DNA from: an uncultured Gammaproteobacteria bacterium
GTDB taxonomy: Bacteria > Patescibacteriota > Microgenomatia > UBA10105 > UBA927
DNA: 64,000 nucleotides
Assembly: GCA_964629685.1 (NCBI GenBank)
Contig: CAZVTT010000001.1
Location: forward strand, 705,319 to 769,318
Direction of reading: 5' to 3'
The notes under the pieces were generated by a model, which was not told the origin of the DNA, made no database searches, and worked only from the letters and a program-made list of their open reading frames with translations. A program made the position numbers and the translations under genes. This document shows positions 1 to 26,287 of this stretch, one piece after another; within the stretch, counting starts at the first letter, position 1, and the number at the start of each line of letters is the position of its first letter.

Positions 1-1
1 C

Positions 2-1297: not shown

Positions 1298-1302
1298 AAT
1301 AA

Positions 1303-4597: not shown

Positions 4598-4598
4598 A

Positions 4599-6848
4599 TT
4601 AGCGAAAAATAGTTGACGATTTATTTGAATATATTTTGTTTTTGTTTTGTGTTAAGAAGTCGTACGGGTAAAGGTAGCTAATTGTTATTCCGGCAATATT
4701 TTTATATGAGATCCGTTTTACTTCGTTTGGATAACTTAAGAAAACATAGGATTGGATAAACATGTTAGCTGGGTGAATGTCTGTATTCGGATATAGAAAT
4801 TTATAGGAGGATGCAATATATTTAAAATTCGCATAGCCATCAGTGTAAACAGTAATCCCACTTTGCTCTTTATTTTTACTAAACCACTGAGAGGAAGCTT
4901 TTTCTGTTTCCAGCAAGTAATAGTTATTAAAGCCATCGCCAAAATTATTAAATTGTATAGTCGGATAAGTATTGCCCATTAGTTGACTAAGAAACCCTGT
5001 ATATATTAGAAAATAAGCAATACTGAGTGAGGAAGCTGAAATAAATAGAATTTTTTGTATTAATTTTTTAGTTATAAATGCGAATGGGAATAGTAATGGT
5101 ACTACCAGTAAGACTAAAAGTTGTTGAAATGTTCGAAGCAAGTCGTAGTCTAGTGTGAAAAAAGGAACAATCATAAAAATAAGAAGTACTGTTAATCCAC
5201 CGAGGGTAGAAGCTACAACGTCTATATGAAAGTGCTTTTTCCGTACATTTACTAACATTACGATTGCACCAATAATAATTATCAATTTGAATATCTTTTT
5301 CACTATTTCAGCTAAAAAGTTTATTTGATTGCTAATTTTAATAGGAATTTTTGCAGGAATAAATTCTGAAGATACTATAGTAGGTATATAGTCAGCATAA
5401 GTTGATGGGTTGTAATATCCAGAACTTCGATTCTTATTTGCAAACGAGTCCAGATAATCCTGGAAAATAACATTTCGGTCTTTTGGAGTGTACGACAGAT
5501 TAAATTGATCAAATGGGCTAGTTTGTTCTTTGCGGTTATCATCAGAAAAAATTGTATGTAACCTGCGGAATGAATTAGAGATATAACCTAAGATATTGCT
5601 TGAATTACTATTTAGATCGGAATACCAGAATAACGTCACTACTCCCAAAAACATTACCAAAAGAAATGAGAGATTACTTACTGCATGTGTTGTTTTAGTA
5701 ATTCTATGGATTAGTTTCAGAATTAAACTGTATCCATAAATACTGCTAAATAGAATTATGGCTACATAGGAAGTCGAATAGTGAGACACAATCATTCCTA
5801 AGGCAAAAAGAAAAATCATTGCTTTGTTTCCTGGAGAATTTACCTTATTGGTAAAAATAGAAAAGACGAGCAAAGCGAAAAAGAAAAACGATATTTCTTG
5901 TCTCATATGCATTGGAAGTGCATTTATGTATATTGGAAATGAGATAAAGAACAGTGAACCTATAAACGAATAGGTGTTAGTGAAGAACCGTTTAGCAAAT
6001 AGTAGAACAGTTACCGGAAGAAATGCTGTGAGAATCTGAAACAAAAACTTGAATACGATTAGCGGTTCAACGTCTAGAAGTTTCGCTATAAAAGTTGGGA
6101 ATAACGTAATACTTAAACAGGCATAATATGCGTGTTTTATACTGTTTACTACCCACTGGCCTTTTTGAAAAGTAGTCTGAAACATCATGTATTCCGTCAT
6201 AATGTCTGAACCGGCTATAAGCGTGTTTCTGGCAGATAGCATAAGGAGGATTGCCAATCCGATTGAATAAACTGCTGCGATATATACATACGTTTGAAGT
6301 CTTCTGGGGAATGAAAGTAGAGCCACTATATATACAGTTATAAAAGTGAGCATAAATAACGTTAGGGTGTTTGGTAGATTATTGGTGATTCTGTTAGCGC
6401 CGAAAATAGATAAAACAGGGAACAATAATGGAAGAAATGCCATTAGGACAGAGATTTTCTCTAGTCGTATTATTTGAGTAGAAAGTGTGACTGTTGTTTT
6501 TCTCAATAATATATATAACGCAAGAACGGCTATTGCAATGGAATAACCAGGTAACAGGTTGAGCTGGGATAATGGTTGAGTAATTCCCAGATAGGGTAAG
6601 GTTACATTAATACCTAGGCCCAAAAAAAGTAAAAAGGAAACACCTAAGCCTACAATATAAATACATTTTTCATAAATTGAGTCTGCATGAATCCGAAGAA
6701 TGAGTGATAGTAGGAATCCAGGTAATAAAAAAGACATTGGGAATGCATAAAAATAAACTCCTATCGGGTTTCTGATTAATACACTTAGGTTAAAAAATCC
6801 CAGTGCCAAAATAATCACTATGAACAACGATGTATACGATAGTTTCAT
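4599..6848 (-). CDS. Large polytopic membrane protein, DUF2206-like; a putative lipid-linked glycan transferase or polymerase
   Basis: 749 aa with many TM helices and a C-terminal soluble domain. Its general architecture resembles the DUF2206 family. The product call is weak. Confidence 0.35.
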   Translation of the reverse strand: MKLSYTSLFIVIILALGFFNLSVLIRNPIGVYFYAFPMSFLLPGFLLSLILRIHADSIYEKCIYIVGLGVSFLLFLGLGINVTLPYLGITQPLSQLNLLPGYSIAIAVLALYILLRKTTVTLSTQIIRLEKISVLMAFLPLLFPVLSIFGANRITNNLPNTLTLFMLTFITVYIVALLSFPRRLQTYVYIAAVYSIGLAILLMLSARNTLIAGSDIMTEYMMFQTTFQKGQWVVNSIKHAYYACLSITLFPTFIAKLLDVEPLIVFKFLFQILTAFLPVTVLLFAKRFFTNTYSFIGSLFFISFPIYINALPMHMRQEISFFFFALLVFSIFTNKVNSPGNKAMIFLFALGMIVSHYSTSYVAIILFSSIYGYSLILKLIHRITKTTHAVSNLSFLLVMFLGVVTLFWYSDLNSNSSNILGYISNSFRRLHTIFSDDNRKEQTSPFDQFNLSYTPKDRNVIFQDYLDSFANKNRSSGYYNPSTYADYIPTIVSSEFIPAKIPIKISNQINFLAEIVKKIFKLIIIIGAIVMLVNVRKKHFHIDVVASTLGGLTVLLIFMIVPFFTLDYDLLRTFQQLLVLLVVPLLFPFAFITKKLIQKILFISASSLSIAYFLIYTGFLSQLMGNTYPTIQFNNFGDGFNNYYLLETEKASSQWFSKNKEQSGITVYTDGYANFKYIASSYKFLYPNTDIHPANMFIQSYVFLSYPNEVKRISYKNIAGITISYLYPYDFLTQNKNKIYSNKSSTIFR

Positions 6849-9061
6849 AGAATTTGATTGTAAACCGTTATAAGTTTATCAATAGTGTTATTCCAGCTAA
6901 ATTTTTTCGAGTATTTGCTTACTTCTCTGCTTAAATGCATCCGCATAGGTACATTATCGATTAAAGTGTCAATGTCATGAGCAAATTGTACTGTGTTATT
7001 TATATTACCAAGAATACCCATACTATTAAGTATTTCCCGTACTTCTGGCGTATCATTCGCCACGATTGGTAGTCCCATTGCCATTGCTTCGAGTAAAACT
7101 AGTGGAAATGCCTCACGCTCTGAAGGTAGAATAAATATATCTGATGCTTTATACATTTCTATAAGCGCATTCCCTTTTAGAGTTCCATGAAATATTACGT
7201 TTGAAAGCTCAAGTTGTTTAGCAATATTTTCAGCTTTGCTTCTCAATTCTCCGTCTCCGACTATATGAAGTTCAACTGAGTTGCGGACGTGTGGTATTAC
7301 GTCAAGCAGTTTGAAAATATTTTTTTGGGTAGTAAGGCGGCCTACAAAAAGTAATTTGATGAACTTTTTAGGGCGAATAGTTCGTTTAAATAAATATTCA
7401 TTTTCAAAACCATTCGGAATTATGGTTATTTTTTCGGTTTTTAATCCATACAATTGTATAACTCTCTTTTTCTGAGTATTGTTTAAGACAATAATTTTGT
7501 TTGCATTTCGTAAAACGCGTTTTAGAAAGAGTTGCTTATATAACGGCAACAAAAAACCTAATTTTCCAGATGCACCCAAATCAATATGTATATGAGCAAC
7601 ATAAGGTATCCCTCTTACTTTAGCTATAAATGCCACAATTTCCGGAAAAAGCGCCTGGGCAATGTGTAAATGGATTATTGATCTTTTAGGTAATGAAAAA
7701 AGTTTTTTGATTAAGCCAAAGGGTATAGGAGTATGCGCAAGTTCAAACGCTTTTAACCGGGTAATTTCAAGTGATTCTGTTTTAAAATGATTATTAAATC
7801 CCAAAGATGTTGTAATCACTGATGTGTTTATATTATTAGCTTTGAGACCAGCAGTGATGTTTTCTACGCATTGTTCCATACCACCTAAGTGTGGGGGGTA
7901 ATATGGAGTGAGTTGAACTATGGATGGAATTCTTTCATTCTTATTCGCAATTTCGGATAACACATCCATATATTTTTGAGTTTTATTCTCCCATTGAAAT
8001 TTACTTGCTGTAATCAACCCGTTAGTTACTAAGTGATTAGCTTTTACTGTCTCTTTGAGCAGCGTACGAATTGCTGTTGCAAGTTCATGTGGATTCCCCG
8101 GTTCAACCAGTAATCCGTTTTTATTATGTGTTATTAGGTGTGGAATCCCGCCAATATTTGAGCCTATTACATTTGTTCCACAAGCCATAGCCTCCAGCAA
8201 TACCATACCGAAGGACTCAGCCTCAGATGTAGATGGTAGCACTAATATATTTGAAGATTGATATTCTTTTACTAAGTCCAGACCATTCCGTCTTCCTACA
8301 AATTTTACATGATTCTCTAGTTCGTAATTAACTGTCTGTTTTTTATATAGATCTACTGCATTCCCATCTCCAACTACGCGGAGATTAAGTGGAAAACCTT
8401 GCATATGTAAGATTTTTATGGCTGAAATTAATGTTGAAAGTCCTTTCCATTTGGTTGCATTGTCTATATTCCCGACGAAAAGTACAGTATTCTTTCGTTT
8501 TTTACCTGCAGCTTTATACTGGTTTAAATCAACTCCAGGTTGAATTAACCAGCTTGATCTAGCAATCGGAGCAATTTTTTCTTTTAAAAACGGTGGAGAT
8601 ATTGCTATTACTGCGTCTGAATTTTTTATTAGTTCTGGCAAAATGTTTTTTTCATAAACATTAATAATCGAATCTACAAGTAAATTGTTTTTTTTCATGC
8701 TCCCGGCATGATAGGTAAGAATAAAAGGGTTATTATTTTTTGCAAGATATGCCATATCCGCCATAAATGGAACGGGTGCGTGAGCATTAATAATGTCTGG
8801 CTTTTCTTTTTTAATAATTTCCCGTAAGTGAAAGTACCAATTCGGGTTTATTGGGGTATTCGAGAGTTTAAACAGCGTTGGTAGTCTATATATTTTTATA
8901 CCGTCCAAGGTTTCAGTAGTTATGGATTTATTATCAGACGAAGTCACTACAACAATCTCCATATGATAATCAAAACAAAGTTTTTGAGCTATTGAATATA
9001 CGTATCGTTCCAACCCTCCTACAGAAGGATAGAAATACGGAGTTGTAATAAGTATTTTCAT
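6845..9061 (-). CDS. Tandem double GT4 glycosyltransferase (GT4-GT4 fusion)
   Basis: 738 aa. Two GT-B units are present. The first begins MKILITTPYFYPSVGGLERYV and contains ...VLPSTSEAESFGMVLLEAMACGTNVIGS. The second begins SIVQLTPYYPPHLGGMEQCV and contains ...ILPSEREAFPLVLLEAMAMGLPIVA. Each carries an E-x7-E-like motif. Confidence 0.6.
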   Translation of the reverse strand: MKILITTPYFYPSVGGLERYVYSIAQKLCFDYHMEIVVVTSSDNKSITTETLDGIKIYRLPTLFKLSNTPINPNWYFHLREIIKKEKPDIINAHAPVPFMADMAYLAKNNNPFILTYHAGSMKKNNLLVDSIINVYEKNILPELIKNSDAVIAISPPFLKEKIAPIARSSWLIQPGVDLNQYKAAGKKRKNTVLFVGNIDNATKWKGLSTLISAIKILHMQGFPLNLRVVGDGNAVDLYKKQTVNYELENHVKFVGRRNGLDLVKEYQSSNILVLPSTSEAESFGMVLLEAMACGTNVIGSNIGGIPHLITHNKNGLLVEPGNPHELATAIRTLLKETVKANHLVTNGLITASKFQWENKTQKYMDVLSEIANKNERIPSIVQLTPYYPPHLGGMEQCVENITAGLKANNINTSVITTSLGFNNHFKTESLEITRLKAFELAHTPIPFGLIKKLFSLPKRSIIHLHIAQALFPEIVAFIAKVRGIPYVAHIHIDLGASGKLGFLLPLYKQLFLKRVLRNANKIIVLNNTQKKRVIQLYGLKTEKITIIPNGFENEYLFKRTIRPKKFIKLLFVGRLTTQKNIFKLLDVIPHVRNSVELHIVGDGELRSKAENIAKQLELSNVIFHGTLKGNALIEMYKASDIFILPSEREAFPLVLLEAMAMGLPIVANDTPEVREILNSMGILGNINNTVQFAHDIDTLIDNVPMRMHLSREVSKYSKKFSWNNTIDKLITVYNQIL

Positions 9062-10194
9062 AGAGAATATACTTCGGTAATTTCTTTAACTATTTGATCC
9101 CAGTCTTTTATTTTTTTTGACTTAACTGGTAGATTATTTTTTTTGGTACTCAGATATAAACCAATTGCAGACGCAATCGATTCAGGTGTTAATTTCGTAA
9201 CTATTCCATCATTTTTATCAGTAATTAGTGTTTTGGCAGCATTATTCGGTTCGTCAACAGTGACGACCACAAGTCCAACAGCTAAAGCTTCTATAACTAC
9301 AATTCCATAACCTTCACGACTTGAAGGAATAACCAGAATTTTTGATCCTTTTAGCAGACTATATAATTCTGTTTTTGTTGAGCAAAATTCTAGAAAGATG
9401 ATGTTTTTTTGTAAATCTAATGATTCTACTAGTAGGTTTAAATTATTTTTTTCCGGTCCATCTCCTATAATTAAGCATCGAATTGATGGTGTGGTTTTTT
9501 TTAGCACAGAGATAGCTTTGATAAGAATATCTACGTTTTTATGTTTCAGTAACCTGCCTGCAAAAATGACATCAGATTTTTGTATTGGTTTTGGAGCAGT
9601 CAGAATTTGTGCATAATTAACTCCATTATTAATAGTATGTATTTTTTTGTCGTCTACATATCTTAACAATCTTTCTTTTGTAACAAACGAACTGGCAATA
9701 AAAACATTTGGAAGTTGAAAACTAATATATTCAATTACACTTGAGATAAATCCGAGTACTCCCATATATTTCAACCAATATTTTTTCCCCCATACTTCAT
9801 GCCATGTGGCAAACATTTTTTTACCTTTTAACCAGCATGCTAGTCGTACTGAATACAGGGGGAAATACGGCATGTGATCAACGTCTATTACATCAAACTC
9901 TTCTTTAAACAATTTAAGACACGCGAGTCCAAACAGTATCCCTTGTTTAATGGATCTGCGTTCTCCTGAATAGAGCGGATAGAGGGGGGATATGGCATGG
10001 AGGGTAACCCCTTCCTCTATGCGAACCTTTTCCGGAGTAGTCCACCACTTCATGCAGTAGATGTGTACGTCGTATCCGCGTTTAGCCAGACGCATGGATA
10101 TTTCGTGGAGCCGGGTTTCTTTGCCCCCTTTGTTGTAGGGGTAAATAGCATCGGATACAAAAGCAATACGGTGAGCCGTTTTTGCATTAACCAT
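9058..10194 (-). CDS. GT4-family glycosyltransferase
   Basis: 378 aa with RIAFVSDAIYPYNKGGKETRLHEIS...VIPSSREGYGIVVIEALAVGLVVV. Confidence 0.6.
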   Translation of the reverse strand: MVNAKTAHRIAFVSDAIYPYNKGGKETRLHEISMRLAKRGYDVHIYCMKWWTTPEKVRIEEGVTLHAISPLYPLYSGERRSIKQGILFGLACLKLFKEEFDVIDVDHMPYFPLYSVRLACWLKGKKMFATWHEVWGKKYWLKYMGVLGFISSVIEYISFQLPNVFIASSFVTKERLLRYVDDKKIHTINNGVNYAQILTAPKPIQKSDVIFAGRLLKHKNVDILIKAISVLKKTTPSIRCLIIGDGPEKNNLNLLVESLDLQKNIIFLEFCSTKTELYSLLKGSKILVIPSSREGYGIVVIEALAVGLVVVTVDEPNNAAKTLITDKNDGIVTKLTPESIASAIGLYLSTKKNNLPVKSKKIKDWDQIVKEITEVYSL

Positions 10195-10206
10195 AGGCGT
10201 AGTAAT

Positions 10207-10956
10207 CTACAATGATTCTTCCTGTATTTGTCGAAGTTTTAACGGACGACGCGGATGAGGAGGTTGCCAGGAAAGATTTGTTATCAGCATGTGCATGATT
10301 TTGTAGCCGTCCCGGATAGAATCTATTTTTGACATCCCTTTGCGTTGGTCGTAGGTAATCGGAACAGAATATATTTTGTATCCCAGCTTTACCATTTTGG
10401 TAATCATTTCCATTTCCACGGCAAATCCGTTGGCATTTATATGTGGTTTTAGTACGTCTACTACTTCTTTTTTCCAGGCAAAATACCCGCTTAACACATC
10501 CGTAATATTGGCTTTGTAAAACTGCCGTACCATAAAGGTAAACATCCAGTTAGCTACACGGTGCTGAAAGCTGAGTGCATTGGCGTTTAATTTTCCACCC
10601 AATCGTGAACCCACGATTACATCACAAAAGTTACTGGACAATGGTTCGATAAGACGCAGTATCTCACTGGGTTTGTATGTATGATCCCCATCCAACATCA
10701 CTACATATCCGGCATCTTTGCTTACGGCGTTAAACCCTGCGCGGAGTGCATGGCCTTTGCCTTTGTTCCGTTCATGAATTATTTTTACTCCGAATTCTTT
10801 GGCTACTGCGGCGGTTTTATCGGTAGAATTGTTATCGATTACGATTACTTCCGTTTCCAGGCCATATCCCAGCATTTCCGCACGAGGGATTTCGGCCAGA
10901 ACGTGGCCGATACCGTCTTCTTCATTATGGCAGGGGATTAGAATAGAAATTTTCAT
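10207..10956 (-). CDS. GT2 polyprenol-phosphate sugar synthase (DPM1/GtrB-like)
   Basis: 249 aa. MKISILIPCHNEEDGIGHVLAEIP...VIVIDNNSTDKTAAVA...VVMLDGDHTY is the classic DPM1-like pattern. Confidence 0.6.
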   Translation of the reverse strand: MKISILIPCHNEEDGIGHVLAEIPRAEMLGYGLETEVIVIDNNSTDKTAAVAKEFGVKIIHERNKGKGHALRAGFNAVSKDAGYVVMLDGDHTYKPSEILRLIEPLSSNFCDVIVGSRLGGKLNANALSFQHRVANWMFTFMVRQFYKANITDVLSGYFAWKKEVVDVLKPHINANGFAVEMEMITKMVKLGYKIYSVPITYDQRKGMSKIDSIRDGYKIMHMLITNLSWQPPHPRRPLKLRQIQEESL

Positions 10957-10957
10957 A

Positions 10958-11401
10958 TTATTCTACAAATGTCCAAAAGTGGATATTTTGTTGTTGATCA
11001 GGTAAACTCACCTCAATTTTAGTACGTCCACTTACGGAGCTAATCATCGGATTTGCGTCAATAGTTTTCATATCGTTATGTGCCAAACGGATAAATCCTT
11101 CATCGAGTAATAATTTTCCGGACGACGTTGTTTCTGCAGTGATTTGGTATTTGTACTCCATAACCTTATTTTCTAAATTATGCAAGGTAAACCGGAACGG
11201 TATTTGTTCGTTTTGATTGCTAGTCTGAGGGAGTTCCATATGTCTCTCAAAATAGAGTTCCGAAAACTTTTCTGGTTCTGGAAGAAGGTGATACGTATTA
11301 AGTATACTTTTAATACTATGGGTATTCGCAGAAAGAAGGACTACAGCAGATAGAAGAGTGAATAATGTTGCGGATAATATTGCAATATTTCTGGTACTCA
11401 T
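10958..11401 (-). CDS. Small signal-anchored protein of unknown function
   Basis: A hydrophobic N-terminus (MSTRNIAILSATLFTLLSAVVLLS) is followed by about 120 aa of soluble sequence. The start was set at the ATG at 11401. It lies downstream of an extended -10 element. Confidence 0.35.
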   Translation of the reverse strand: MSTRNIAILSATLFTLLSAVVLLSANTHSIKSILNTYHLLPEPEKFSELYFERHMELPQTSNQNEQIPFRFTLHNLENKVMEYKYQITAETTSSGKLLLDEGFIRLAHNDMKTIDANPMISSVSGRTKIEVSLPDQQQNIHFWTFVE

Positions 11402-11486
11402 AAGCGAAAACACCGATTATGTTCTTAATAAATACAATAAACAGAGTCGTAGAAAGAAGACACTGGTTATTACTATAAGATTATTT

Positions 11487-11495
11487 GTGTCGCTA
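11487..11495 (-). promoter_or_regulatory. Extended -10 element (TGgTATAAT) for the minus-strand operon that begins at 11401
   Basis: The reverse complement of 11487-11495 reads TGGTATAAT. It sits in a 125-nt gap between two minus-strand genes. Confidence 0.35.
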
Positions 11496-11539
11496 AATTA
11501 TACCAGTTTTGTGTAGAGAAAGAAATATAGACTACGTTT

Positions 11540-13081
11540 CTATTGTATCAGATCTTTAATCATCCCCTCGATGGTCCTATTGGTATCGAAGAGTATTCCC
11601 ACCACTGATTGTTCGGGGACAGCAATTTTCATCGAAAGCGTGGTGTTTGCCGTTAAACTTTTAGCACCAAGTAATGTAAAACCGTCTTGTATATTTGAAG
11701 CTACATACGCACGGGCACGGACGTATCCTTTATATGGAGGGTTATTAATATTAACTGTAACTTCTTTTGGCGAATATTCGTCATTCACCAGAATAATACC
11801 GGTTTCGTTTCTGCTGTTTTTAAAAGCTAGTTGTGCAGCTAGATCTTTACCAGTAGAAAGAAAAATTCTACTATCGCCATTACCCAAACCAAGTGTTTTG
11901 CTTAAGAGTATCCAGCTTTTTGACTGAGGCAATAGTGTGGCTTGGTCATTTGTCCAACGGTAAAATGCATATTTTTCCTGGTCTATATTCGAATTTTTTG
12001 CATTTACCGGTTCAATAACGTGATAACTCGTACCTTTTATGCCATTTGTAAGGTAGTAGATAAGCCTTTTGGAAGTAAACGGTATAGCTAAATACGTATT
12101 GGTGTTGGGACTTGGTCTTCCTATATTCGTAGCAAAACTCCATTCTGTTACAAAAACAGGTAGGTCCTGACGGCCTCGCGAAAGCAATGTTTTTTGAATA
12201 ATTGGTAAGGCATCGTCATTTACGCCATAGTAATGGTAACTTACGAAATCGATATTGTTGGCAGTTCTTGGATCGACCAGAATCGTTTGTAAAATAGTGT
12301 TATTTTTTACATTCGAAAGCGTGGGACCTCCGATGGGTATCCGTTTCCCGTCGTTCATTTCTGCATCTACTTCCCTGATTGCCGTGGAAGCATAGTAATA
12401 AATGTTCGCATATGCCTGTTCTTTGGACATCCCACTGTTTTTTAAATCCAGAAATCGGGGATGATCTGGTTCGTTCCAAATTTCTATGTAATCAATTTTA
12501 GGACGAAAGTATTTATACGCTTTTTTTACAATATCTTTATAAACATCCCAGTCTTTTGGTACGCCGAACGTGGTTCCTGAGTACGTTAACCAGCTCGGAG
12601 CATAGGAAACTATGGCTATAGTAGTTAGGTTTCTGGATCGGGCATTATCAAAAAATATTTCCCTGCTTGCGATATTCGCTTTATTCCAATTTGTAACGTC
12701 CTGAATTCCGTTTACGTTCGCTTTATATGATTCCAAGGTAGTGTCTTTATGAAAAAAATATTCGAGTAAAAAGTCTTTTCGTATGGCTGTAACGCCCGCC
12801 GCAGTAATTTTATTCCACGCATCCTGGTGTTCCGGAAGGGGGGCATGGGCGCCGCCAAATACCAGAGGAGAACCTGTGGAAATTTGTTGGGCATAGTCTG
12901 CGTTCACAGTTGCAGTGGTGCTGGTAATTCCCAGTACGTCCGAGGTTCTATATACAATAAACTTACCTGATCGATATACCTGCTTGTATTCAGATATACC
13001 CGAGCTGAGAATCCTACCAATGGATATTGAAGCAATAATTAAGAGTACGAAAAATATGATTTTGGGTGGATTCAATTTCAT
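11540..13081 (-). CDS. Membrane-anchored glycoside hydrolase, clan GH-A (GH5/GH39-like)
   Basis: 513 aa with an N-terminal TM anchor. IEIWNEPDHPRF looks like an NEP acid/base motif. PVFVTEWSFAT looks like a TE(W) nucleophile motif. Confidence 0.45.
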   Translation of the reverse strand: MKLNPPKIIFFVLLIIASISIGRILSSGISEYKQVYRSGKFIVYRTSDVLGITSTTATVNADYAQQISTGSPLVFGGAHAPLPEHQDAWNKITAAGVTAIRKDFLLEYFFHKDTTLESYKANVNGIQDVTNWNKANIASREIFFDNARSRNLTTIAIVSYAPSWLTYSGTTFGVPKDWDVYKDIVKKAYKYFRPKIDYIEIWNEPDHPRFLDLKNSGMSKEQAYANIYYYASTAIREVDAEMNDGKRIPIGGPTLSNVKNNTILQTILVDPRTANNIDFVSYHYYGVNDDALPIIQKTLLSRGRQDLPVFVTEWSFATNIGRPSPNTNTYLAIPFTSKRLIYYLTNGIKGTSYHVIEPVNAKNSNIDQEKYAFYRWTNDQATLLPQSKSWILLSKTLGLGNGDSRIFLSTGKDLAAQLAFKNSRNETGIILVNDEYSPKEVTVNINNPPYKGYVRARAYVASNIQDGFTLLGAKSLTANTTLSMKIAVPEQSVVGILFDTNRTIEGMIKDLIQ

Positions 13082-13332
13082 TCTGAATTAGTTTTTGTAT
13101 TCTACACTATATATTTAGAATAAAACCAACAATTACTGTATCTTTGTACAATCCTTACACAATTCTTACAAGAGTGTATTACACTAAATATAGTGACCGC
13201 CCTATTATGGGATCAATTGAGTCATTCGTGAGGGATGGCTCTATCAGATAGGTCAAACGTCCCGCCAAGCGGGGCGAAATTATATTCATACATTTTTCTG
13301 GACCTGCTCCTTCATAAAAGAAAAAATACTAC

Positions 13333-13437
13333 GGTACAACCCTTTGGTACCTATACATAGGTATAAATAGATATATTTAGTACTAGTTAGGTATACATAT
13401 CTATACACTGCATGCTTCTATTGGGTACAACCATACC
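13333..13437. promoter_or_regulatory. Cluster of operator-like repeats just upstream of the plus-strand promoter
   Basis: There are two direct repeats: AGGTATAAATAGATATA (13359-13375) and AGGTATACATATCTATA (13389-13405). They match at 14 of 17 positions and are spaced 30 bp apart. They are flanked by two inverted repeats: GGTACAACC-N-GGTACC (13333-13351) and GGGTACAACCATACCC (13423-13437). Confidence 0.4.
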
Positions 13438-13443
13438 CCTGCG

Positions 13444-13472
13444 TTGACAGGATATGTGAGGAATGATACAAT
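13444..13472 (+). promoter_or_regulatory. Sigma70-type promoter: -35 TTGACA, 17-nt spacer, extended -10 TGaTACAAT
   Basis: TTGACA occupies 13444-13449. TGATACAAT occupies 13464-13472. The spacer is exactly 17 nt. It lies immediately upstream of the HTH gene and the large plus-strand operon. Confidence 0.55.
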
Positions 13473-13509
13473 GCCGGCCTATAAGTTTCGTTCTTATCTC
13501 GGTATTCTC

Positions 13510-13695
13510 ATGAGCTCAGACCAAGATCAACAATTTCTCACCGTAAAGGAAATAGCCAGATTTTTGAAGCTAAATCCGCTTACGATCTACGATTATATTC
13601 ACCTCAAACGCCTTCCGGCCGTTAAGTTTGGCCGCTACTATAGGGTAAGCAAATACGATTTACACAAGTTTATACAGAGTCAAAAAGTACGCTAA
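13510..13695 (+). CDS. Small helix-turn-helix DNA-binding protein (excisionase/MerR-type, HTH_17-like); a putative regulator
   Basis: LTVKEIARFLKLNPLTIYDYIHLKRLPAVKFGRYYRVSKYDLHKFI fits the excisionase-family HTH. The ATG at 13510 was chosen as start. The track ORF begins at a TTG (13444) that is actually the -35 hexamer. Confidence 0.5.
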   Translation: MSSDQDQQFLTVKEIARFLKLNPLTIYDYIHLKRLPAVKFGRYYRVSKYDLHKFIQSQKVR

Positions 13696-13697
13696 CC

Positions 13698-15992
13698 ATG
13701 AAAAAACCGACACTTTCCATTGTCATACCGGTATATAACGAAGAAGGGAACGTTAAACTTCTGCTGGAACGGATTAGCATGGCTATGAAGTCGGCAGGAA
13801 TAAAATACGAAGTCGTATTCATAGACGACCATTCTACCGATAAGACCGTAGAGATAATTAAATCCCTTTCTACCTCGTATCCGTTATCGCTCCTGAAAAA
13901 GAAAAAAGGTATGGCCCGCGGTAAAGCCAGCTCACTTCTGGCCGGATTTGCCTTTGCGAAAGCCGACGTTATTACCATGATCGATGCGGATTTGCAGTAT
14001 CCGCCCGAGGCTATTATTCCCATGTTTGAGAAAATCCTGCATGGAGCAGGGGTCGTAATCGCCAACCGCAAAAAACGTAAAACGGGATTTATCCGACAGG
14101 CAGCCAGCTTATCGTACCGCTACGTATTCGGAAACATCCTTTTGGGTTTTAAACATGACGTGCAGTCGGGGTTAAAAGTATTCCGCAAAGAAATAATCGA
14201 GCGGGTAGCTATAGCACCCAGCCAATGGATGTTTGACCTGGAATTTCTGGTCTTTGCCCGGGATGCGGGATACATTATTGAATCCCATGACATAGAATTT
14301 GCCCCGCGGCACACCGGTGCGGCCAAGATTAACGTGGTGACAGCTGCCGTAGAAATGGCACTCGCAGCAGTACAATTACGCGTCCGGAAAGACAATATTA
14401 TTCCGTTTCACGCTGAAACCAAAGAAAAACACGGAAACGGTTTCCATTTTAAAGGTCTGCCGTTCGTGAGTTATTCCGGCCTAAAACACTACGAAACTGC
14501 TTTTTTCCGGCTTTCTATCCGCCAAACCCTCTGGATTATCGGATTTTTGCTTATTTTAGCCGGAGCACTCATGATTTCGTGGCATGCGACCCTCGTCGGA
14601 CTCGTGGCACTGTTAACCGTGCTGTACTTTGTGGACATGGTGTTTAACTTTTCCCTTGTTCTCCGCAGCGTATCAAAAGATCGTGAGCTCATGATCGACG
14701 ATGAAGATACCAAAATTGCACCTGTTGGCGGTTGGCCGAAATACACTATTTTCTGCCCGCTTTATAAAGAATGGCAGGTTATTCCGCAGTTCGTCCGGGC
14801 TATGAGCCAACTGGATTATCCCAAAGACAAACTGCAGGTTATGCTCTTACTAGAAGAAGACGATACCGCCTCGGTAGAAAAAGTCGCCGAAATGGAATTA
14901 CCAAGCTACTTTACCGTGAAGGTTATTCCGCATAACAAGCCCAAAACGAAGCCCAAAGCGCTCAATTTCGGCTTACGCTATGCGACAGGGGAATATTCGG
15001 TCATTTATGATGCGGAAGACATTCCGGACCCGCTGCAGCTGAAAAAAGCCGTTCTGGCCTTTAAACGGTCTCCGTCTACGGTAAAGTGTATTCAGGCCAA
15101 GCTCAATTTCTATAATCCGCGTCAGAATTTACTGACTCGGATGTTTACCACGGAATATTCTTTGTGGTTCGACTTGGTGTTACCCGGATTACAGTCCATA
15201 GAAGCTCCTATTCCATTGGGAGGCACCTCCAATCACTTCCGCGTGTCGGATTTGCATATTCTGGGGGGCTGGGATGCCTTTAACGTGACCGAAGACTGTG
15301 ATTTGGGTATCAGGCTAGCCAAACGGGGATACCATACCGCCATCGTCAACTCAACCACTATGGAAGAAGCCAACAGTTCACTCTTGAACTGGTACGGTCA
15401 GCGTAGTCGGTGGATAAAGGGCTACATTCAGACATATATGGTTCACATGCGGGATCTGAGCCAGTTTTCGTTCTCCCGGGATAATCCTAACGGTTTTACC
15501 TTTCAGATGGTGGTGGGTGGCAAGATTTTGTCTTTGTTCATTAATCCGTTTATGTGGCTGATTACCATTAGCTACTTTTCGTTTAGGGCCACACTCGGAC
15601 CGATTATCGAAACATTCTATCCATTACCCGTGTTGTACATGGGTGTATTTTCCCTGGTATTCGGAAATTTCCTTTATATGTATTCATACATGATCGGCTG
15701 TTTCCGCCGGGAAGAATACGGACTGGTAAAGTTTGCCCTCATAACGCCATTGTACTGGCTGGCTATGAGCGCGGCAGCCTGGAAAGCCGTATGGGAAATA
15801 GTGTTTAACCCGCATTACTGGCACAAAACTACGCATGGGCTACATTTGGCTAAACAGCCTGAAGCTGCCGGTGCACATCGGTTCGGAATTGTGCAAAAGG
15901 TAAAAAAACATTTAGCCGCGCGTCGACAAAAAGCCAGACATTCACAGATCCTGCCACCGTATCGGAATATAGTCCATCCGAACGTTTCATAA
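13698..15992 (+). CDS. Two-domain GT2 fusion: an N-terminal DPM1/GtrB-like polyprenol-phosphate sugar synthase and a C-terminal processive beta-glycan synthase-like GT2 (PgaC/NodC/cellulose-synthase type), with multiple TM helices
   Basis: The N-terminal domain reads MKKPTLSIVIPVYNEEGNV...FIDDHSTDKT...MIDADLQYPP. A TM hairpin follows. The second domain carries DAED, TEDCDLG and the GQRSRWIKGY (QxxRW) motif. C-terminal TM helices follow that. Confidence 0.65.
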   Translation: MKKPTLSIVIPVYNEEGNVKLLLERISMAMKSAGIKYEVVFIDDHSTDKTVEIIKSLSTSYPLSLLKKKKGMARGKASSLLAGFAFAKADVITMIDADLQYPPEAIIPMFEKILHGAGVVIANRKKRKTGFIRQAASLSYRYVFGNILLGFKHDVQSGLKVFRKEIIERVAIAPSQWMFDLEFLVFARDAGYIIESHDIEFAPRHTGAAKINVVTAAVEMALAAVQLRVRKDNIIPFHAETKEKHGNGFHFKGLPFVSYSGLKHYETAFFRLSIRQTLWIIGFLLILAGALMISWHATLVGLVALLTVLYFVDMVFNFSLVLRSVSKDRELMIDDEDTKIAPVGGWPKYTIFCPLYKEWQVIPQFVRAMSQLDYPKDKLQVMLLLEEDDTASVEKVAEMELPSYFTVKVIPHNKPKTKPKALNFGLRYATGEYSVIYDAEDIPDPLQLKKAVLAFKRSPSTVKCIQAKLNFYNPRQNLLTRMFTTEYSLWFDLVLPGLQSIEAPIPLGGTSNHFRVSDLHILGGWDAFNVTEDCDLGIRLAKRGYHTAIVNSTTMEEANSSLLNWYGQRSRWIKGYIQTYMVHMRDLSQFSFSRDNPNGFTFQMVVGGKILSLFINPFMWLITISYFSFRATLGPIIETFYPLPVLYMGVFSLVFGNFLYMYSYMIGCFRREEYGLVKFALITPLYWLAMSAAAWKAVWEIVFNPHYWHKTTHGLHLAKQPEAAGAHRFGIVQKVKKHLAARRQKARHSQILPPYRNIVHPNVS

Positions 15993-15995
15993 CGT

Positions 15996-18488
15996 ATGTG
16001 GCAGATCAGATCGTTCGTACTATCCGGGCGCAAGCAGTTGTCTGCCAGTATAAAAACGGGCGGCGCATTTATTGCTGCCTCCATGATCGCCAATGTCGTG
16101 AACTTCCTCTACAGCGCATATCTGGGGCGTATTAGCGGATTTGAAGAGTTTGGACTTATCAGCTTGATTGCCAGCTTTCTGAATCTTTCGCAAATTCCGC
16201 TGCAGGCGTATTCCAGCACTATTTCCCACCGCACTTCGTATCTGTTCGGAAAATACGGAACACCGGCCAAGCCGTTTTGGGCTCATTTTCGGGGAGGAGC
16301 ATTAAAGCCGGCGTTACTGCTCAGTGGTGCCTGGCTGGTACTTATTCCGTTTATGGCGGCATTCTTTCAGACGGACAGATTGTTGCCGTTCTTACTGTTT
16401 ACTCCTATCTGGAGCGTAGGGGTAGCTGCTGCCGTAGATTCCGGCTTTTTGAGCGGGTCCATGCGGTTTAATACGCTGGCGGCCATGATGCTCTCCGAAG
16501 TTTCAGTGAAGTTTGCGGTAACAGTACTTATGGTGCTGATAGGCCTACCGCAATATGTGTATGTTGCGATTCCCGCCGGGATCATAACGTCGTACGTTAT
16601 CGGATGGCTCGTAGCGCGGGGGATTGTAACCAAACATATAGCACACGCGGATTTTCATTCTACCGTGTTGCCACGACGGTTTTATGCGTCATCCTTTTTA
16701 AGCAAGGTTTCCTTGGTAGCGTTTTTAACCATGGATGCCATGCTGGCCAAACATTATTTGCCGCCGAAAGAAGCGGGGCAGTATGCACTCCTTTCCCTGG
16801 TGGGAAAAATGGTATTTTTTATGGGAACATTATTTACTCAGTTCCTCACACCCCTGATCAGCAAGCATGAAGGTGCAGGCAGGAATTCGACTAAAATTTT
16901 TTGGGTAATATTACTACTCACCACTGCTGCAGTGTTGGGCGGCGTTACTACCGTCGGCGTATTCGGATATATTACTATTCCGTTCCTGTTGGGACCCAAA
17001 GCCTGGGACATTGTGGCGTATTTGCCCACATATACATTTGCCATGGGTTGTATGGCGATTGCCATGGGTTTTGTTTCGTACCATCAGTCACGACGGGTAC
17101 ACTTGTTCGCGGTTGCCAGCTTCGGCATGTCGCTGATCATGCTTACGGGCATAGTGCTGTGGCACGGATCGGTAGAAGAAATAGCCAAGGTGCTCACGGT
17201 GAGCGGAATTATTTTTCTGATGGTAACCATGTTTCTGCATCGGTTCCATGAGGCGGTTTCCACCGTAATCCGGAATATCCGTGATTTTTTGGAGCTGTTT
17301 CTGGACGATAAGCAAAAACGGGAGGGCATGCCTAATTCCCTCCGGATACTGATATTTAATTGGCGAGATACCCAACATGTTTGGGCTGGAGGAGCCGAGG
17401 AATATATTCATCAGCTCAGCAAACGGTGGGTAAAGGATGGACACAGCGTAACCGTTTTTTGCGGAAATGATCAGAAACACGCCCGGAATGAAGTAATAGA
17501 TGGTGTGCAGATGGTCCGGCGCGGGGGCTTTTACATGGTATATCTGTGGGCGGCACTGTATTATATTTTTCGCTTTCGTGGACAATTTGACGTCATCGTA
17601 GATGCCGAGAACGGAATTCCATTTTTTACCCCGCTTTTCGTGCGCAAACCCACTATATTACTTATTCATCATGTTCATCAGGACGTTTTCCGGGATCAAT
17701 TATGGTTACCGCTCGCCATGCTGGCTACATTCCTGGAAACAAAACTTATGCCCATGCTGTACCGGAATGTCCCGGTCGTAACCGTATCCGAATCATCCAA
17801 AAAAGAAATTCTGCGGGTAGGATTTGGTGTAGCCAATACGGTAACTATTGTGTATCCGGGAATAGAGCCTGAACTGTATAAAACCGTCCGCAAAACTGCG
17901 CATCCGTCAGTGCTATATCTGGGACGATTACGGCCGTACAAACAAGTAGATGTGCTTATCCGGGCATTTGCCAAAGCGCTTTCCGCTCATCCGGAAATGA
18001 AGCTGACGATAGCCGGGGAAGGCGTAAGTTTGAAAGAACTGGAAACACTTGCGAATTCGCTCAATATTTCCCACGCGGTGCAATTTACCGGCCGGGTTTC
18101 GGAACGGGAAAAAGTGGCGTTGCTTGGATCGCACTGGGTTATGGTACAGCCGTCTTCCATAGAAGGATGGGGTATTACCGTGATAGAAGCAAACGCCTGC
18201 GGTACGCCGGTGATTGCGTCTGACGTACACGGATTACGGGATTCGGTCGTAGACGAAAAGACCGGACTATTGGTGCATCCGGGAGACCATCAGAGTCTGG
18301 CTGCTGCCGTATCGTATGTGATTACCCATCATGAAGACCGGAAACAAATGACCGCTGCCGCTCTCGATTGGTCTAAATCATTTGATTGGGATCAAAGTGC
18401 CGCCGTATTTTTACAGGTTCTTAAACGCAGTATTACCGGACATAGAAAAACAATTTCCGGCAGACCAATTACGACTATTGCCCGATAA
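15996..18488 (+). CDS. Wzx-like (MOP superfamily) flippase fused to a C-terminal GT4 glycosyltransferase
   Basis: The first 430 aa or so are polytopic with flippase-like topology. The C-terminal region reads LRILIFNWRDTQHVWAGGAEEYIHQL...VQPSSIEGWGITVIEANACGTPVIASDVHGLRDSVVDEKTGLLV, which is the GT4 EX7E region. Confidence 0.6.
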   Translation: MWQIRSFVLSGRKQLSASIKTGGAFIAASMIANVVNFLYSAYLGRISGFEEFGLISLIASFLNLSQIPLQAYSSTISHRTSYLFGKYGTPAKPFWAHFRGGALKPALLLSGAWLVLIPFMAAFFQTDRLLPFLLFTPIWSVGVAAAVDSGFLSGSMRFNTLAAMMLSEVSVKFAVTVLMVLIGLPQYVYVAIPAGIITSYVIGWLVARGIVTKHIAHADFHSTVLPRRFYASSFLSKVSLVAFLTMDAMLAKHYLPPKEAGQYALLSLVGKMVFFMGTLFTQFLTPLISKHEGAGRNSTKIFWVILLLTTAAVLGGVTTVGVFGYITIPFLLGPKAWDIVAYLPTYTFAMGCMAIAMGFVSYHQSRRVHLFAVASFGMSLIMLTGIVLWHGSVEEIAKVLTVSGIIFLMVTMFLHRFHEAVSTVIRNIRDFLELFLDDKQKREGMPNSLRILIFNWRDTQHVWAGGAEEYIHQLSKRWVKDGHSVTVFCGNDQKHARNEVIDGVQMVRRGGFYMVYLWAALYYIFRFRGQFDVIVDAENGIPFFTPLFVRKPTILLIHHVHQDVFRDQLWLPLAMLATFLETKLMPMLYRNVPVVTVSESSKKEILRVGFGVANTVTIVYPGIEPELYKTVRKTAHPSVLYLGRLRPYKQVDVLIRAFAKALSAHPEMKLTIAGEGVSLKELETLANSLNISHAVQFTGRVSEREKVALLGSHWVMVQPSSIEGWGITVIEANACGTPVIASDVHGLRDSVVDEKTGLLVHPGDHQSLAAAVSYVITHHEDRKQMTAAALDWSKSFDWDQSAAVFLQVLKRSITGHRKTISGRPITTIAR

Positions 18489-18490
18489 AT

Positions 18491-19552
18491 ATGAAAAACC
18501 AACAAAAACCACCGGTAGAAGCGTCCATGATCACCAAATTATTTTCCGTGGTGTGGGCTCAATTCGGATTAGTTTGGGATAAGGCCAGGGGTATAGTCGT
18601 GGTGCCACATTTGCCTGACAGAGTAGAAGGATATCAATTTGTCCGGAGAATTCAGCCGGAAAAATCCGGCCCGATTGCCGTCGGCGTCTACGTGAACAAC
18701 CGCGGTGAACAGATTGCCGTAAAAGTGTGGGAAGGGCGATATAAAACCCGGGCGTATTTCGAAACAATACACGAAATTATTACCGTGTGGACGTTAAACC
18801 AGGTGGCTAAACGCGTGCATTTACGGATTCCGGCCGCCATTCGCCATGTAAACGTACCGAACGTGGTGACGTTCGAAGTTGCACCCCAAAAATTATTACT
18901 GGCCACGGAATGGAGTCATGGTGATTTATTTAAGACCGCAACTCCACAACAGCAGATTTCGTTATACGAACAGTGCCGGCAGTATTTTACGGCCTTATCC
19001 GCACATATTACTCCGGCGGAGCGCCGGGTATTCGGAGATAAAACCCGGAATTATATTTTCTGGTTATATCCGGCAATAATTCTGACTGCCTGCTTCCGGC
19101 ATCCGGAACTGATTCCGCCTATTCTGGGCGGTGCCATGAATACATTAAACGGGTTTAGGTATTTGGCCTCGGAGTTGGAACAGGGACTGGTGCATGGTGA
19201 TTTACACGGAAATAACGTGTTGTGGAATCAAAAAGAAACGGTGATTGTCGATACGGCGAACGTGATGTGGAGTTATACCATAATAGAATATTTAGCGACG
19301 TTGGCCTCTCCGTTAACCCCGAAAGCCCTGGAGGAATATGTAGCCATGACCGTGCGGGACCAGGTAAATAAAACGGTAAAACAGCGGGTAGCCGGAAAAT
19401 TCATATCTGCATTTATCGGTATATTCGACCTGACCATCAGACTTACGCCGGCGCATATGAACGCAGCATTACGGTTGGTGCGGGGAGAGTATTTCCCGAA
19501 TACCGTCACGGCGTTGCCGACAGCATCGAAAGTAAAACAGGTACGGGTTTAA
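18491..19552 (+). CDS. Protein-kinase-fold phosphotransferase (APH/Kdo-kinase-like); a putative glycan or small-molecule kinase
   Basis: IAVKVWEG provides a VAIK-like lysine. HGDLHGNNVLW is a Brenner/HRD-like catalytic loop. IVDTANV is a DFG-equivalent. Confidence 0.5.
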   Translation: MKNQQKPPVEASMITKLFSVVWAQFGLVWDKARGIVVVPHLPDRVEGYQFVRRIQPEKSGPIAVGVYVNNRGEQIAVKVWEGRYKTRAYFETIHEIITVWTLNQVAKRVHLRIPAAIRHVNVPNVVTFEVAPQKLLLATEWSHGDLFKTATPQQQISLYEQCRQYFTALSAHITPAERRVFGDKTRNYIFWLYPAIILTACFRHPELIPPILGGAMNTLNGFRYLASELEQGLVHGDLHGNNVLWNQKETVIVDTANVMWSYTIIEYLATLASPLTPKALEEYVAMTVRDQVNKTVKQRVAGKFISAFIGIFDLTIRLTPAHMNAALRLVRGEYFPNTVTALPTASKVKQVRV

Positions 19553-19554
19553 CT

Positions 19555-20271
19555 ATGAACTTAAAACAAATACTATTCTCATCACCCCTATTTTCTTTAT
19601 TCGGGAAGGTGGTGCGTATGCTAAAGCCGAAATCATCCTTTCGGCTGGGTACAAAAACGACTATACCGTTAAGCACAAAATACGGATTGGATCGGGGTAC
19701 ACCGGTAAACCGATATTGGATAAAAAAAGCTATAGCGTTATGGAAATCCGATATCAGGGGAACGGTACTGGAAATAGGCGACCGCCGTTATACGTCCGAA
19801 TTTGGTGGGCAGGCAGTTAAGCGGTCGGATATCCTGGATATAGTAAAAACAAACTCGGCTGCCACTATTATCGGCGATCTGCGGAATGTAAAAAAACAAA
19901 TTAAGAACAATACCTACGACTGTATTATCCTGACGCACGTATTGGGGATGATAGATGATTATTCTGCGGCCATCCGGGAATGTCACCGGATACTTAAACC
20001 GGGTGGAGTATTGCTGGTTACCGTAGCCGCGTTTAGCCCGGTACTTGAACAGGCAAGCTCGTACTGGCGATTTACCGAGGCAGGTGCCAAATATGCATTC
20101 TCAGGTGTGTTTTCGAAAACAACAGTACAAAGTTACGGAAACGTATACAGCGGACAGGCATTTTGGGTGGGAATGTCGCAGGAAGAACTCACGCGGGAAG
20201 AGCTTGATTTTGACGATGAGCGGTATCCCTGTGTCATTGCCATTCGGGCGGTGAAGGAGGACAACGTATGA
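19555..20271 (+). CDS. Class I SAM-dependent methyltransferase
   Basis: VLEIGDRRYTSEFGG is a glycine-rich motif I. LKPGGVLLVTV is a post-motif II feature. Confidence 0.55.
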   Translation: MNLKQILFSSPLFSLFGKVVRMLKPKSSFRLGTKTTIPLSTKYGLDRGTPVNRYWIKKAIALWKSDIRGTVLEIGDRRYTSEFGGQAVKRSDILDIVKTNSAATIIGDLRNVKKQIKNNTYDCIILTHVLGMIDDYSAAIRECHRILKPGGVLLVTVAAFSPVLEQASSYWRFTEAGAKYAFSGVFSKTTVQSYGNVYSGQAFWVGMSQEELTREELDFDDERYPCVIAIRAVKEDNV

Positions 20272-26199: not shown

Positions 26200-26287
26200 G
26201 CGCTTTTTTTAAAGGTCATAATAATACCTCAGGATCTGAGGGTAGTAATTTGAGGAAAATTTAGCTATAATAATAGTCTTATAGAAT

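Follow-up and report, generated by a model that had tools for sequence, protein, structure and literature searches.

How does an AT-rich run of minus-strand glycosylation genes come to stand back to back with a GC-richer run of plus-strand ones in a single genome, and does the gap between them mark the place of an acquisition? The question is raised by a 64,000-nucleotide stretch of contig CAZVTT010000001.1 (positions 705,319 to 769,318; hereafter the window), which an earlier note had divided by eye into a block A and a block B meeting at positions 13082-13509, and for which it had offered three explanations: a glycosylation island acquired from an AT-rich donor that makes no use of Shine-Dalgarno (SD) sites, a chimeric assembly join, or a strong local mutational skew. 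The comparative analyses presented here point to a different answer, which we consider fairly probable: block A would be the larger part of a surface-glycan cassette whose centre was exchanged within the phylum (Patescibacteria), and this centre would thereafter have persisted for a long time as an AT-rich, allele-specific segment.

The GC content was profiled in 1-kb windows, and compositional boundaries were placed by likelihood segmentation of third-codon positions (GC3 change-points); negative coordinates denote positions to the left of the window, for which sequence was recovered from loci L006 and L009. The profile is clearly not uniform, with GC values of 0.30-0.35 at positions 1-10,000, 0.37-0.43 at 10,001-13,000 and 0.42-0.50 from approximately 14 kb to the end. 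The description by eye of block A as AT-rich, with codons ending in A/T and proteins rich in Asn, Lys and Ile, is thus borne out (genes up to 10,194 have a GC3 of 0.23-0.30, and Asn/Lys/Ile/Tyr/Phe make up 0.32-0.40 of their residues), as are the GC-richer character of block B (GC3 of 0.37-0.53 in its plus-strand genes) and the opposite orientation of the two (10 of 10 block-A genes on the minus strand, block B essentially all on the plus strand). What had to be given up is the placement of the main compositional switch at 13082-13509. The change-points fall at -1951, 9745 and 13539, and the first two are the sharper ones; at 13082-13509 we observed mainly a strand switch, accompanied by a modest GC3 step from 0.36 to 0.50, while the sharp steps lie inside genes elsewhere. 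They delimit an AT-rich core of 11.7 kb (~-1953 to 9744), with an overall GC of ~0.33 as compared to ~0.47 in the host (difference 0.144) and a GC3 of 0.26 as compared to 0.44-0.51 in genes of host type. Both of its edges are intragenic (in a flippase gene at -1951 and in the gene of a 378-aa family 4 glycosyltransferase, GT4-378, at 9745), and the 5' ends of both genes are host-like. To the left of the window the GC content is back at 0.46-0.49 some 2-3 kb past the edge, so that the AT-rich segment is bounded there too. Furthermore, the contrast exceeds mere base content, since the tetranucleotide signature still deviates after normalisation for mononucleotide content (correlation with the host 0.50-0.65 in the AT-rich part and 0.83-0.93 in host segments, the left flank included). 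The features concerned are as follows (GT, glycosyltransferase; GH, glycoside hydrolase):

Left flank, negative coordinates: GC3 0.44
EpsH-like exosortase gene, left of the window: GC3 0.47
Just left of the window: Wzx-type flippase, 421 aa (PF01943 Polysacc_synt; 8 hydrophobic segments); GC3 0.43 over the first 75 codons and 0.25 over the remainder
1-9744, minus strand: in-window part of the AT-rich core (GC 0.30-0.35, GC3 0.17-0.30, tetranucleotides, Pfam), continuing to ~-1953; core genes, GC3 0.27
209-1297, minus strand: GT4 (Pfam)
1303-2184, minus strand: GT14/Branch (Pfam)
2181-3767, minus strand: PMT_2-type GT-C (Pfam; 7 hydrophobic segments)
3731-4597, minus strand: GT2 (Pfam)
4599-6848, minus strand: DUF2206 polytopic membrane protein, 749 aa (Pfam; 13 hydrophobic segments)
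6845-9061, minus strand: GT4-GT4 fusion (Pfam)
9058-9744, minus strand: 3' 229 codons of GT4-378, AT-rich, GC3 0.17
9745-10194, minus strand: 5' 150 codons of GT4-378, host-like, GC3 0.45; the right-hand compositional breakpoint lies within this gene
10207-10956, minus strand: AglJ-like GT2 of 249 aa (GT2-249), conserved flank gene (Pfam Glycos_transf_2, 1.7e-28); host-like GC, GC3 0.43
10958-11413, minus strand: 151-aa protein anchored in the membrane by one N-terminal hydrophobic segment (residues 8-31), with a weak DUF1616-like region; GC3 0.32
11540-13081, minus strand: GH-like gene, 513 aa, first of the cassette, clan GH-A-like (weak matches to Pfam Glyco_hydro_39, 2.7e-7, and Cellulase, 2.1e-5); GC3 0.36

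Block A and the two to three genes to its left (~3 kb) form one conserved module, which was recognised when the homologs nearest to the GT4-GT4 fusion and to GT4-378 were looked up. Its order runs from the GH-like gene (~515 aa) through a ~150-aa DUF1616-like membrane-anchored protein, an AglJ/DPM1-like GT2, a GT4, two GT4 domains (fused or split), the DUF2206 polytopic protein, a GT2 and a GT14/Branch to a GT4, and ends with a convergent GT4 and Wzx-type flippase; the cassette as present here comprises 13 genes. Synteny extends over 11-12 genes in loci L091, L092 and L097 and is partial in L093, a Saccharimonadales locus, with amino-acid identities of 28-57%; the core genes inside the window are syntenic in the first three of these and partly so in L093 and L096. 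Individual genes keep their place as well: orthologs of the GH-like gene come first in the cassette in L091, L092 and L097, homologs of the 151-aa protein occupy the same position in L091, L092, L093 and L095-L098, and a Wzx-type (MOP/Polysacc_synt) flippase does so in L091, L093 and L097. The accessory genes vary from cassette to cassette (a PMT_2 GT-C here; acyltransferases, pyruvyl transferase or deacetylase elsewhere), as does the fusion or splitting of the GT4s. The closest relatives found, L095 and L096, carry the cassette at the same place. L095 has 78.5% nucleotide identity to window positions 8337-11805, and a relative closer than this was not found, the window itself being represented by a single population (100% identical across five runs). 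L096 is the closest long relative (the Woesebacteria metagenome-assembled genome GCA_044223895.1), and there an APH-like, a GT4 and a double-GT2 gene pointing one way stand against the GH-like gene, followed by DUF1616-like, GT2, GT4, GT4, GT4, DUF2206 and GT4 genes; a part of the same arrangement is present in L091. Such a distribution indicates that the back-to-back layout of cassette and operon is ancestral in the lineage.

The AT-richness of the centre, too, is common to the relatives, the core being AT-richer than its flanks in 6 of the 6 loci with enough context (core-minus-flank GC: window -0.144, L096 -0.129, L097 -0.060, L091 -0.053, L092 -0.042, L093 -0.011). In L096 the flanks have a GC content of 0.37-0.45 and the core one of 0.25-0.29, while L097 is an AT-rich genome with the cassette (flanks 0.37, cassette 0.31) and provides the best full-length core identities (36-47%). 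Moreover, window, L095 and L096 agree in having a GC3 step at codon ~150 of their orthologous GT4s, where amino-acid identity steps down too (from 0.89 to 0.66 against L095 and from 0.78 to 0.47 against L096). Window and L096 are 69% and 79% identical in the flank genes, as compared to 26-30% in GT4-GT4 and DUF2206; GT2-249 is 82% identical to its counterpart in L095 and 71% to that in L096. In a GC-rich relative (L098:10001-11125, flanks 0.50-0.54), we also noted a dip of GC3 to 0.20 at codons ~150-210 of the GT4 ortholog, which coincides with the step in the window and partly recovers, the next, GH-like gene having a GC content of 0.35-0.38. The far core boundary of L096 is uninformative, because no open reading frame (ORF) of >=120 aa occurs on any strand at L096:16900-21113, a stretch of ~4 kb beyond its AT-rich core (it may be degraded or an indel-rich hybrid assembly); within it, L096:17898-18218 has a 35% tblastn match to the window GT4 at 209-1297.

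The comparison with L095 also dates the core. Synonymous divergence (dS) between window and L095 is 1.2-1.7 for the segments bordering the step on both sides (GT2-249, GT4 and GT4-GT4) and 0.7-0.8 for the GH-like and 151-aa shoulder genes. At fourfold-degenerate sites the flank reaches an identity of 0.43 and the core one of 0.47 (0.26 and 0.30 would be expected of independent sites), with an autocorrelation of the S/W state of 0.28 and 0.23, respectively. As the fourfold-site divergence is equal, core and flank have been diverging for equally long, which makes the core old and older than the split from L095; the sequences thus indicate that it was already present, and AT-rich, in the common ancestor of the two. 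The GC content at fourfold sites (GC4, window/L095) stands at 0.51/0.50 for the flank against 0.26/0.31 for the core; had the core been ameliorating passively towards the host value, its GC4 would have had to start from ~0.00-0.20 in the ancestor, which means that only an extremely AT-rich source would serve.

While old, the core does not share the history of its flanks, as far as distant comparisons can show. In the flank genes (GT2-249 and the 5' part of GT4), L096 is the nearest to the window (0.73 vs 0.58-0.63; difference +0.097, 95% confidence interval (CI) 0.046-0.142), whereas in the core (3' part of GT4, GT4-GT4 and DUF2206) it is the most distant (0.305 vs 0.365-0.383; difference -0.078, CI -0.105 to -0.055). 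For DUF2206, with L093 as outgroup, L096 exhibits no acceleration of rate (0.28 vs 0.29-0.30) and is nevertheless equidistant from all others, the window grouping with L097, L092 and L091. The incongruence between core and flanks, in the absence of an acceleration in DUF2206, favours the view that the centre was replaced in one lineage at least.

Taken together, these observations suggest the following course of events. Block A would be a self-contained surface-glycan cassette, standing back to back with a glycosylation operon that is widely conserved in Patescibacteria, and its central 11.7 kb (~-1953 to 9744) would be the allele-specific, serotype-like part. This centre may have been brought in by recombination from an AT-rich gene pool within Patescibacteria, the crossovers falling in outer, conserved portions of the cassette; a pool of this kind within the candidate phyla radiation (CPR) is plausible in view of the intra-phylum horizontal gene transfer and genomic islands reported for Patescibacteria (PMC12455944). 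The exchange would have occurred in an ancestor older than the split from the closest sampled relative, and the centre would have been AT-rich ever since. Several points weigh against this interpretation. No high-identity donor or alternative allele was found (the best full-length core homologs reach 36-47%), and the exchange is deduced from incongruence between distant taxa; in GT4-GT4, furthermore, L096 lies farther from the outgroup (0.25 vs 0.39-0.43), and a rate acceleration could explain a part of that incongruence. Crossover across a GC difference of ~15% requires conserved stretches, which are here presumed, and the low GC has persisted even though ~3/4 of the fourfold sites were randomised since the L095 split, so that a maintaining force may be at work. 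Finally, the window-identical contigs apparently come from one study (judged by their consecutive run accessions alone); they represent independent assemblies and presumably not independent populations.

The strongest competitor dispenses with transfer and has the cassette centre sitting at a locally different compositional equilibrium, which we regard as unlikely. On this account allele-specific genes that evolve fast, are weakly expressed and recombine rarely would be exempt from selection on GC or from GC-biased gene conversion and drift towards AT under AT-biased mutation pressure, and the intragenic edges would mark the end of homology between alleles and hence of recombination. It accommodates well the low GC of the core in all six cassettes, the fact that three genomes retain the GC3 step at one and the same codon in spite of largely randomised fourfold sites between window and L095, the extreme ancestral GC4 that passive amelioration demands (0.00-0.20), the coincidence of the GC step with the step in protein conservation, and the likeness to the unexplained tendency of wzx and wzy in many polysaccharide clusters (PMC3715488). 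Against it stand, however, the phylogenetic incongruence of core and flank genes, with DUF2206 free of an acceleration that could mimic this, and the oligonucleotide signature, deviant even when normalised for GC, and a dip that ranges from 0.011 to 0.144 across homologous cassettes is hard to fit to a single equilibrium linked to function. The local mutational skew put forward in the earlier note fares similarly: it may be a force that keeps the core AT-rich, but it does not account for the phylogenetic incongruence. A bolder proposition, possible though doubtful in our judgement, is that some active process keeps the centre AT-rich and that its intragenic boundary, fixed at GT4 codon ~150, has outlasted a nearly saturating synonymous divergence in at least three Patescibacteria genomes, in an O-antigen-like serotype-cassette system of ultra-small CPR bacteria whose recombination-proficient flanks and recombination-free centre would rest at two compositional equilibria and which would include archaeal-type components (the AglJ-like GT2, DUF1616 and DUF2206). 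If this were true, active maintenance would offer an independent, phylum-level replicate for the question of why wzx, wzy and GT genes are AT-rich, and the archaeal-type components might serve protein or S-layer glycosylation.

Far less credible is the first explanation of the earlier note, by which the whole of block A would be a recent glycosylation island from an AT-rich, SD-less donor, inserted at 13.1-13.5 kb. A part of it survives, as the core has both a history (by incongruence) and a foreign oligonucleotide signature that set it apart from the flanks; the low GC and GC3, the AT-type amino-acid bias, the deviant tetranucleotides and the absence of strong SD sequences before the 12 cassette genes all agree with a foreign origin, and so does the absence of the island-specific (cassette) proteins near the anchor GT2 gene in 80 relatives. 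The latter are the reference loci kept from a scan of genome contigs (mostly of Microgenomates type, i.e. Gottesman-, Levy-, Roizman- and Woesebacteria, and the window's own genome not among them). The recent insertion at the junction, on the other hand, is contradicted by several observations: the sharp edges (9745 and -1951) lie within genes and away from 13.1-13.5 kb, GT2-249 and the 5' part of GT4, on the junction side, have host composition, the layout of cassette and operon is common to L096 and partly to L091, and L095 already has the AT-rich core and the step, with a fourfold divergence as in the flanks, which makes the core old. Nor does a scan of the proteins reveal means of insertion. 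No integrase, recombinase or mobility Pfam family was found in the 13 cassette genes or in 6 left-flank genes; self-BLAST of the merged 73-kb sequence detected neither a repeat pair flanking the core nor repeats or paralog conversion at the breakpoints; and an Rfam scan at gathering thresholds, together with a tRNA/tmRNA scan, yielded no RNA gene and no tRNA integration site in the whole window. The named best matches belong to Patescibacteria on both sides, for block A as for block B (the core GT4-GT4 protein having such matches at <=42% identity).

The supposed switch in translation signals bears on the same proposal. With a strong SD defined by the duplex energy with the anti-SD sequence (dG <= -6), strong sites precede 0 of 12 cassette genes, as had been noticed by eye, and 8 of 48 genes of host composition (block B 6/41, the normal-GC left flank 2/6, EpsH 0/1); the contrast between the two sets is not significant (Fisher p=0.34, Mann-Whitney p=0.14), the host itself being a sparse user of SD. 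Three ORF pairs in block B overlap by 85-209 nt (33348-34439/34231-34992, 21029-22012/20268-21194 and 38709-39839/37582-38793, with 2 of 3 starting at TTG); their true starts are probably further downstream, and so the SD statistics are approximate for them. A classical integrative genomic island was likewise considered and set aside: the composition is atypical, but the segment has no mobility gene, no tRNA or tmRNA and no att repeats, and is present in L095 and L096.

An assembly chimera, in which the junction at 13.1-13.5 kb, or else the GC step at 9.7 kb, would unite contigs of two organisms, has in its favour the abrupt change of composition and strand and nothing else, and may be dismissed as next to impossible, given that separate per-run assemblies from five sequencing runs delivered contigs 100% identical to the window (one of 90 kb) which span 13082-13509 (SRR14271365, -372, -339 and -333), the 9745 step (SRR14271365, -333 and -370) and the -1951 step (SRR14271365, -333 and -372), that a single NCBI contig of 953,690 bp is recorded as carrying proteins of both sides, that L095 is collinear with the window across 9745 at 78.5% nucleotide identity, and that a different genome, L096, repeats the gene order across the junction.

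If the junction is not the site of an insertion, what does it contain? Its features and those that follow it are:

13082-13509, no strand: divergent intergenic region of 428 bp, flanked by the GH-like gene, which starts at 13081 on the minus strand, and the HTH_17 gene, whose ATG is at 13510 on the plus strand
13510-13695, plus strand: HTH_17 excisionase-type DNA-binding protein, 61 aa (Pfam HTH_17, 1.6e-13; NCBIfam excisionase-family domain, 7.4e-13); GC3 0.47
13698-32235, plus strand: CPR envelope-glycosylation operon at the start of block B (Pfam; GC3 0.50, declining to 0.44 along block B), with a 764-aa double-GT2, an 830-aa GT4, an APH-like gene, a methyltransferase, GT2s, a deacetylase, a GT4, a pyruvyl transferase and GT-C-like membrane proteins

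The description of the gap as a repeat-rich divergent promoter region of 430 bp stands with little change. It contains 20 pairs of ten-mer direct repeats, against 5.0 +/- 3.3 in shuffled sequences (a number reached in 1 of 200 shuffles), among them TAGGTATA-type direct repeats at 13348-13405, while inverted repeats are not enriched. A sigma70-type promoter-like site on the plus strand (13444-13472; TTGACA-17-TACAAT with an extended TG) matches the consensus at 11 of 12 positions and is the only noteworthy one, as promoter-like sites in the junction are no commoner than in shuffles (3 vs 3.2). Since the layout of operon and cassette is ancestral in the lineage and found also in L096, the region is a divergent promoter region common to both and not an insertion scar. 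A separate observation concerns a terminator-like GC-rich hairpin in mid-junction (13258-13276, plus strand; CGTCCCGCCAAGCGGGGCG followed by an A/T tail), which has no plus-strand gene upstream and no match for it in Rfam; a weak promoter-like site (13165-13194, plus strand) precedes it, so that a short transcript is conceivable.

The HTH_17 gene heads the plus-strand operon, with the 764-aa double-GT2 gene starting two bases later, and its product is a candidate local regulator: only the fold is of the excisionase type, a partner integrase is lacking, and the gene is a member of a conserved operon. An HTH_17 homolog lies directly upstream of the double-GT2 gene, on the same strand, in 11 of 69 Patescibacteria relatives (L013, L029, L030, L032, L036, L050, L060, L074, L075, L087 and L090), which looks like a recurrent pairing of regulator and operon, and is absent from the closest long relative, L096. 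The operon itself is widespread: the double-GT2 protein has hundreds of Patescibacteria homologs at 55-64% identity, and the leading genes of block B are syntenic in 40-50 of the 80 reference loci. The homolog lists include no JGI relative above 55%. Block B also encodes rhamnose-pathway enzymes, a UDP-glucose dehydrogenase, a flippase, YfhO and a sortase, and the claim that both sides of the junction are devoted to glycosylation is amply supported by the abundance of GT2, GT4 and GT-C glycosyltransferases in blocks A and B alike.

Three further observations were made along the way. Window positions 14000-64000 hold ~50 kb of unbroken plus-strand envelope-glycosylation genes, including >=5 membrane proteins of PMT_2/YfhO/GT-C type, along which GC drifts from 0.49 to ~0.43; the GC skew of block B is positive nearly throughout and rises monotonically when cumulated, consistent with co-orientation with replication. 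Many reference records with this Patescibacteria-type operon (L014, L019-L021, L023, L026-L032 and others) are titled 'uncultured Gammaproteobacteria', 'Bdellovibrionales' or 'Pseudomonadales bacterium'; as their GC (0.31-0.48) and gene content are CPR-like, this taxonomy is probably a placeholder or an error. Lastly, a gene for a 209-aa signal-peptide protein (L006:9703-10332, window ~-3896 to -3267) adjoins the EpsH-type exosortase left of the window and has 66-67% nucleotide identity to window positions 32398-32664 and 33515-33861. These positions belong to two ORFs, 32327-33220 and the fn3-domain-encoding 33348-34439, that lie just upstream of the sortase gene (34231-34992); the products would be paralogous putative surface proteins, the first neighbouring an exosortase and the other two a sortase.

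As for what the cassette does, its domain content leads us to infer a lipid-linked glycan pathway. The cytoplasmic GTs would assemble a unit, the Wzx protein would flip it, the polytopic DUF2206 and PMT_2 proteins may act outside the membrane, and the GH-like enzyme, which has an N-terminal hydrophobic anchor and is thus secreted or membrane-anchored, may trim the product. GT2-249 is likely a polyprenyl-phosphate hexose synthase of the AglJ/DPM1 kind, AglJ being its best match in NCBIfam; the DUF1616 assignment of the 151-aa protein is below cutoff (E=0.0013). No Wzy or O-antigen-ligase family was matched in the cassette, where the DUF2206 protein is a candidate Wzy by position and topology only (a comparison with PDB sequences returned nothing, even at E<=10), and no initiating phosphoglycosyltransferase (Bac_transf or Glycos_transf_4/MraY-like, i.e. 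of WbaP or WecA type) was present among the scanned proteins of window and left flank, though one may be encoded elsewhere in the genome. Surface glycans are the probable mediators of host attachment and phage exposure in Patescibacteria, and there is a practical side as well: a binning or quality-control tool that divides contigs by their composition would break the genome at this place in error. The finding of an AT-rich core does not overturn current understanding. The overall pattern is one expected for surface-glycan loci, and what is mildly interesting is the conserved intragenic GC step amid largely randomised synonymous sites; the same step in diverged genomes amounts to a small natural experiment that pits AT-rich import against a locally maintained AT equilibrium.

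How, then, does this locus compare with known systems? DUF1616 and DUF2206 are Pfam families described from archaeal proteins, and by its DPM1/AglJ-like GT2, DUF1616-like, DUF2206 and polytopic GT-C-like proteins the cassette resembles Agl-type archaeal glycosylation and GtrB/GT-C three-component glycosylation, a likeness which suggests that lipid-phosphate-sugar donors may be used outside the membrane. Unlike an archaeal Agl N-glycosylation cluster, a candidate that we rejected, it has an AglJ match of 169 bits, under the 325-bit equivalog cutoff, no match to an STT3/AglB-type oligosaccharyltransferase family in any scanned protein, and no GtrA match in the cassette (GtrA is present at 43076-44185). 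In Streptococcus pneumoniae, homologous recombination exchanges the serotype-specific central genes of the cps locus, conserved genes on the flanks being the sites of crossover. Recombination-driven diversity is described for group 3 capsules of Escherichia coli as well (PMC10433991), and by analogy with cps switching in S. pneumoniae and E. coli (groups 2/3) the same model of central gene replacement may apply to the present cassette. Here, in contrast, the crossovers would fall inside cassette genes (GT4 and flippase) and not in housekeeping flanks, and no pair of close strains with different centres was found, so that switching is deduced. For groundwater Patescibacteria, hundreds of genomic islands and transferred genes have been predicted by composition methods of the IslandViewer type, with exchange mostly within the phylum (PMC12455944); the portion of that study considered here does not mention cell-wall, envelope or polysaccharide functions of the islands, 'glycos' occurring in it twice in unrelated contexts. 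Unlike those islands, the present core lacks mobility genes, is old and is common to its lineage.

The closest parallel is offered by the O-antigen (rfb) clusters of Salmonella enterica and E. coli. In those of Salmonella, the GC content of GT, wzx and wzy genes is 28-37% in a genome of 51-52%, with GC lower toward the specific centre, and for wzx and wzy the low GC "needs explanation" according to Reeves and co-workers (PMC3715488). The differences are plain: the host here is a member of the Patescibacteria, presumably without outer membrane or lipopolysaccharide, the cassette has no recognisable Wzy, WaaL or initiating phosphoglycosyltransferase (DUF2206 and the PMT_2 GT-C-like protein being the candidate membrane enzymes), and allelic variation is seen only between distant genomes and not between strains of one species. 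The likenesses are nonetheless extensive, since in both the GT-, flippase- and polymerase-type genes are AT-rich (~33% vs 47% here), GC is graded and lower nearer the specific centre, breakpoints lie inside flanking pathway genes, and a variable centre, for which donors are generally unidentified, stands between conserved flanks. With its conserved flanks, its divergent and AT-rich centre and its Wzx-type flippase, the cassette has several of the marks of a Wzx/Wzy-type locus, and the low-GC, variable-centre architecture of O-antigen and capsule loci exists in Patescibacteria too.

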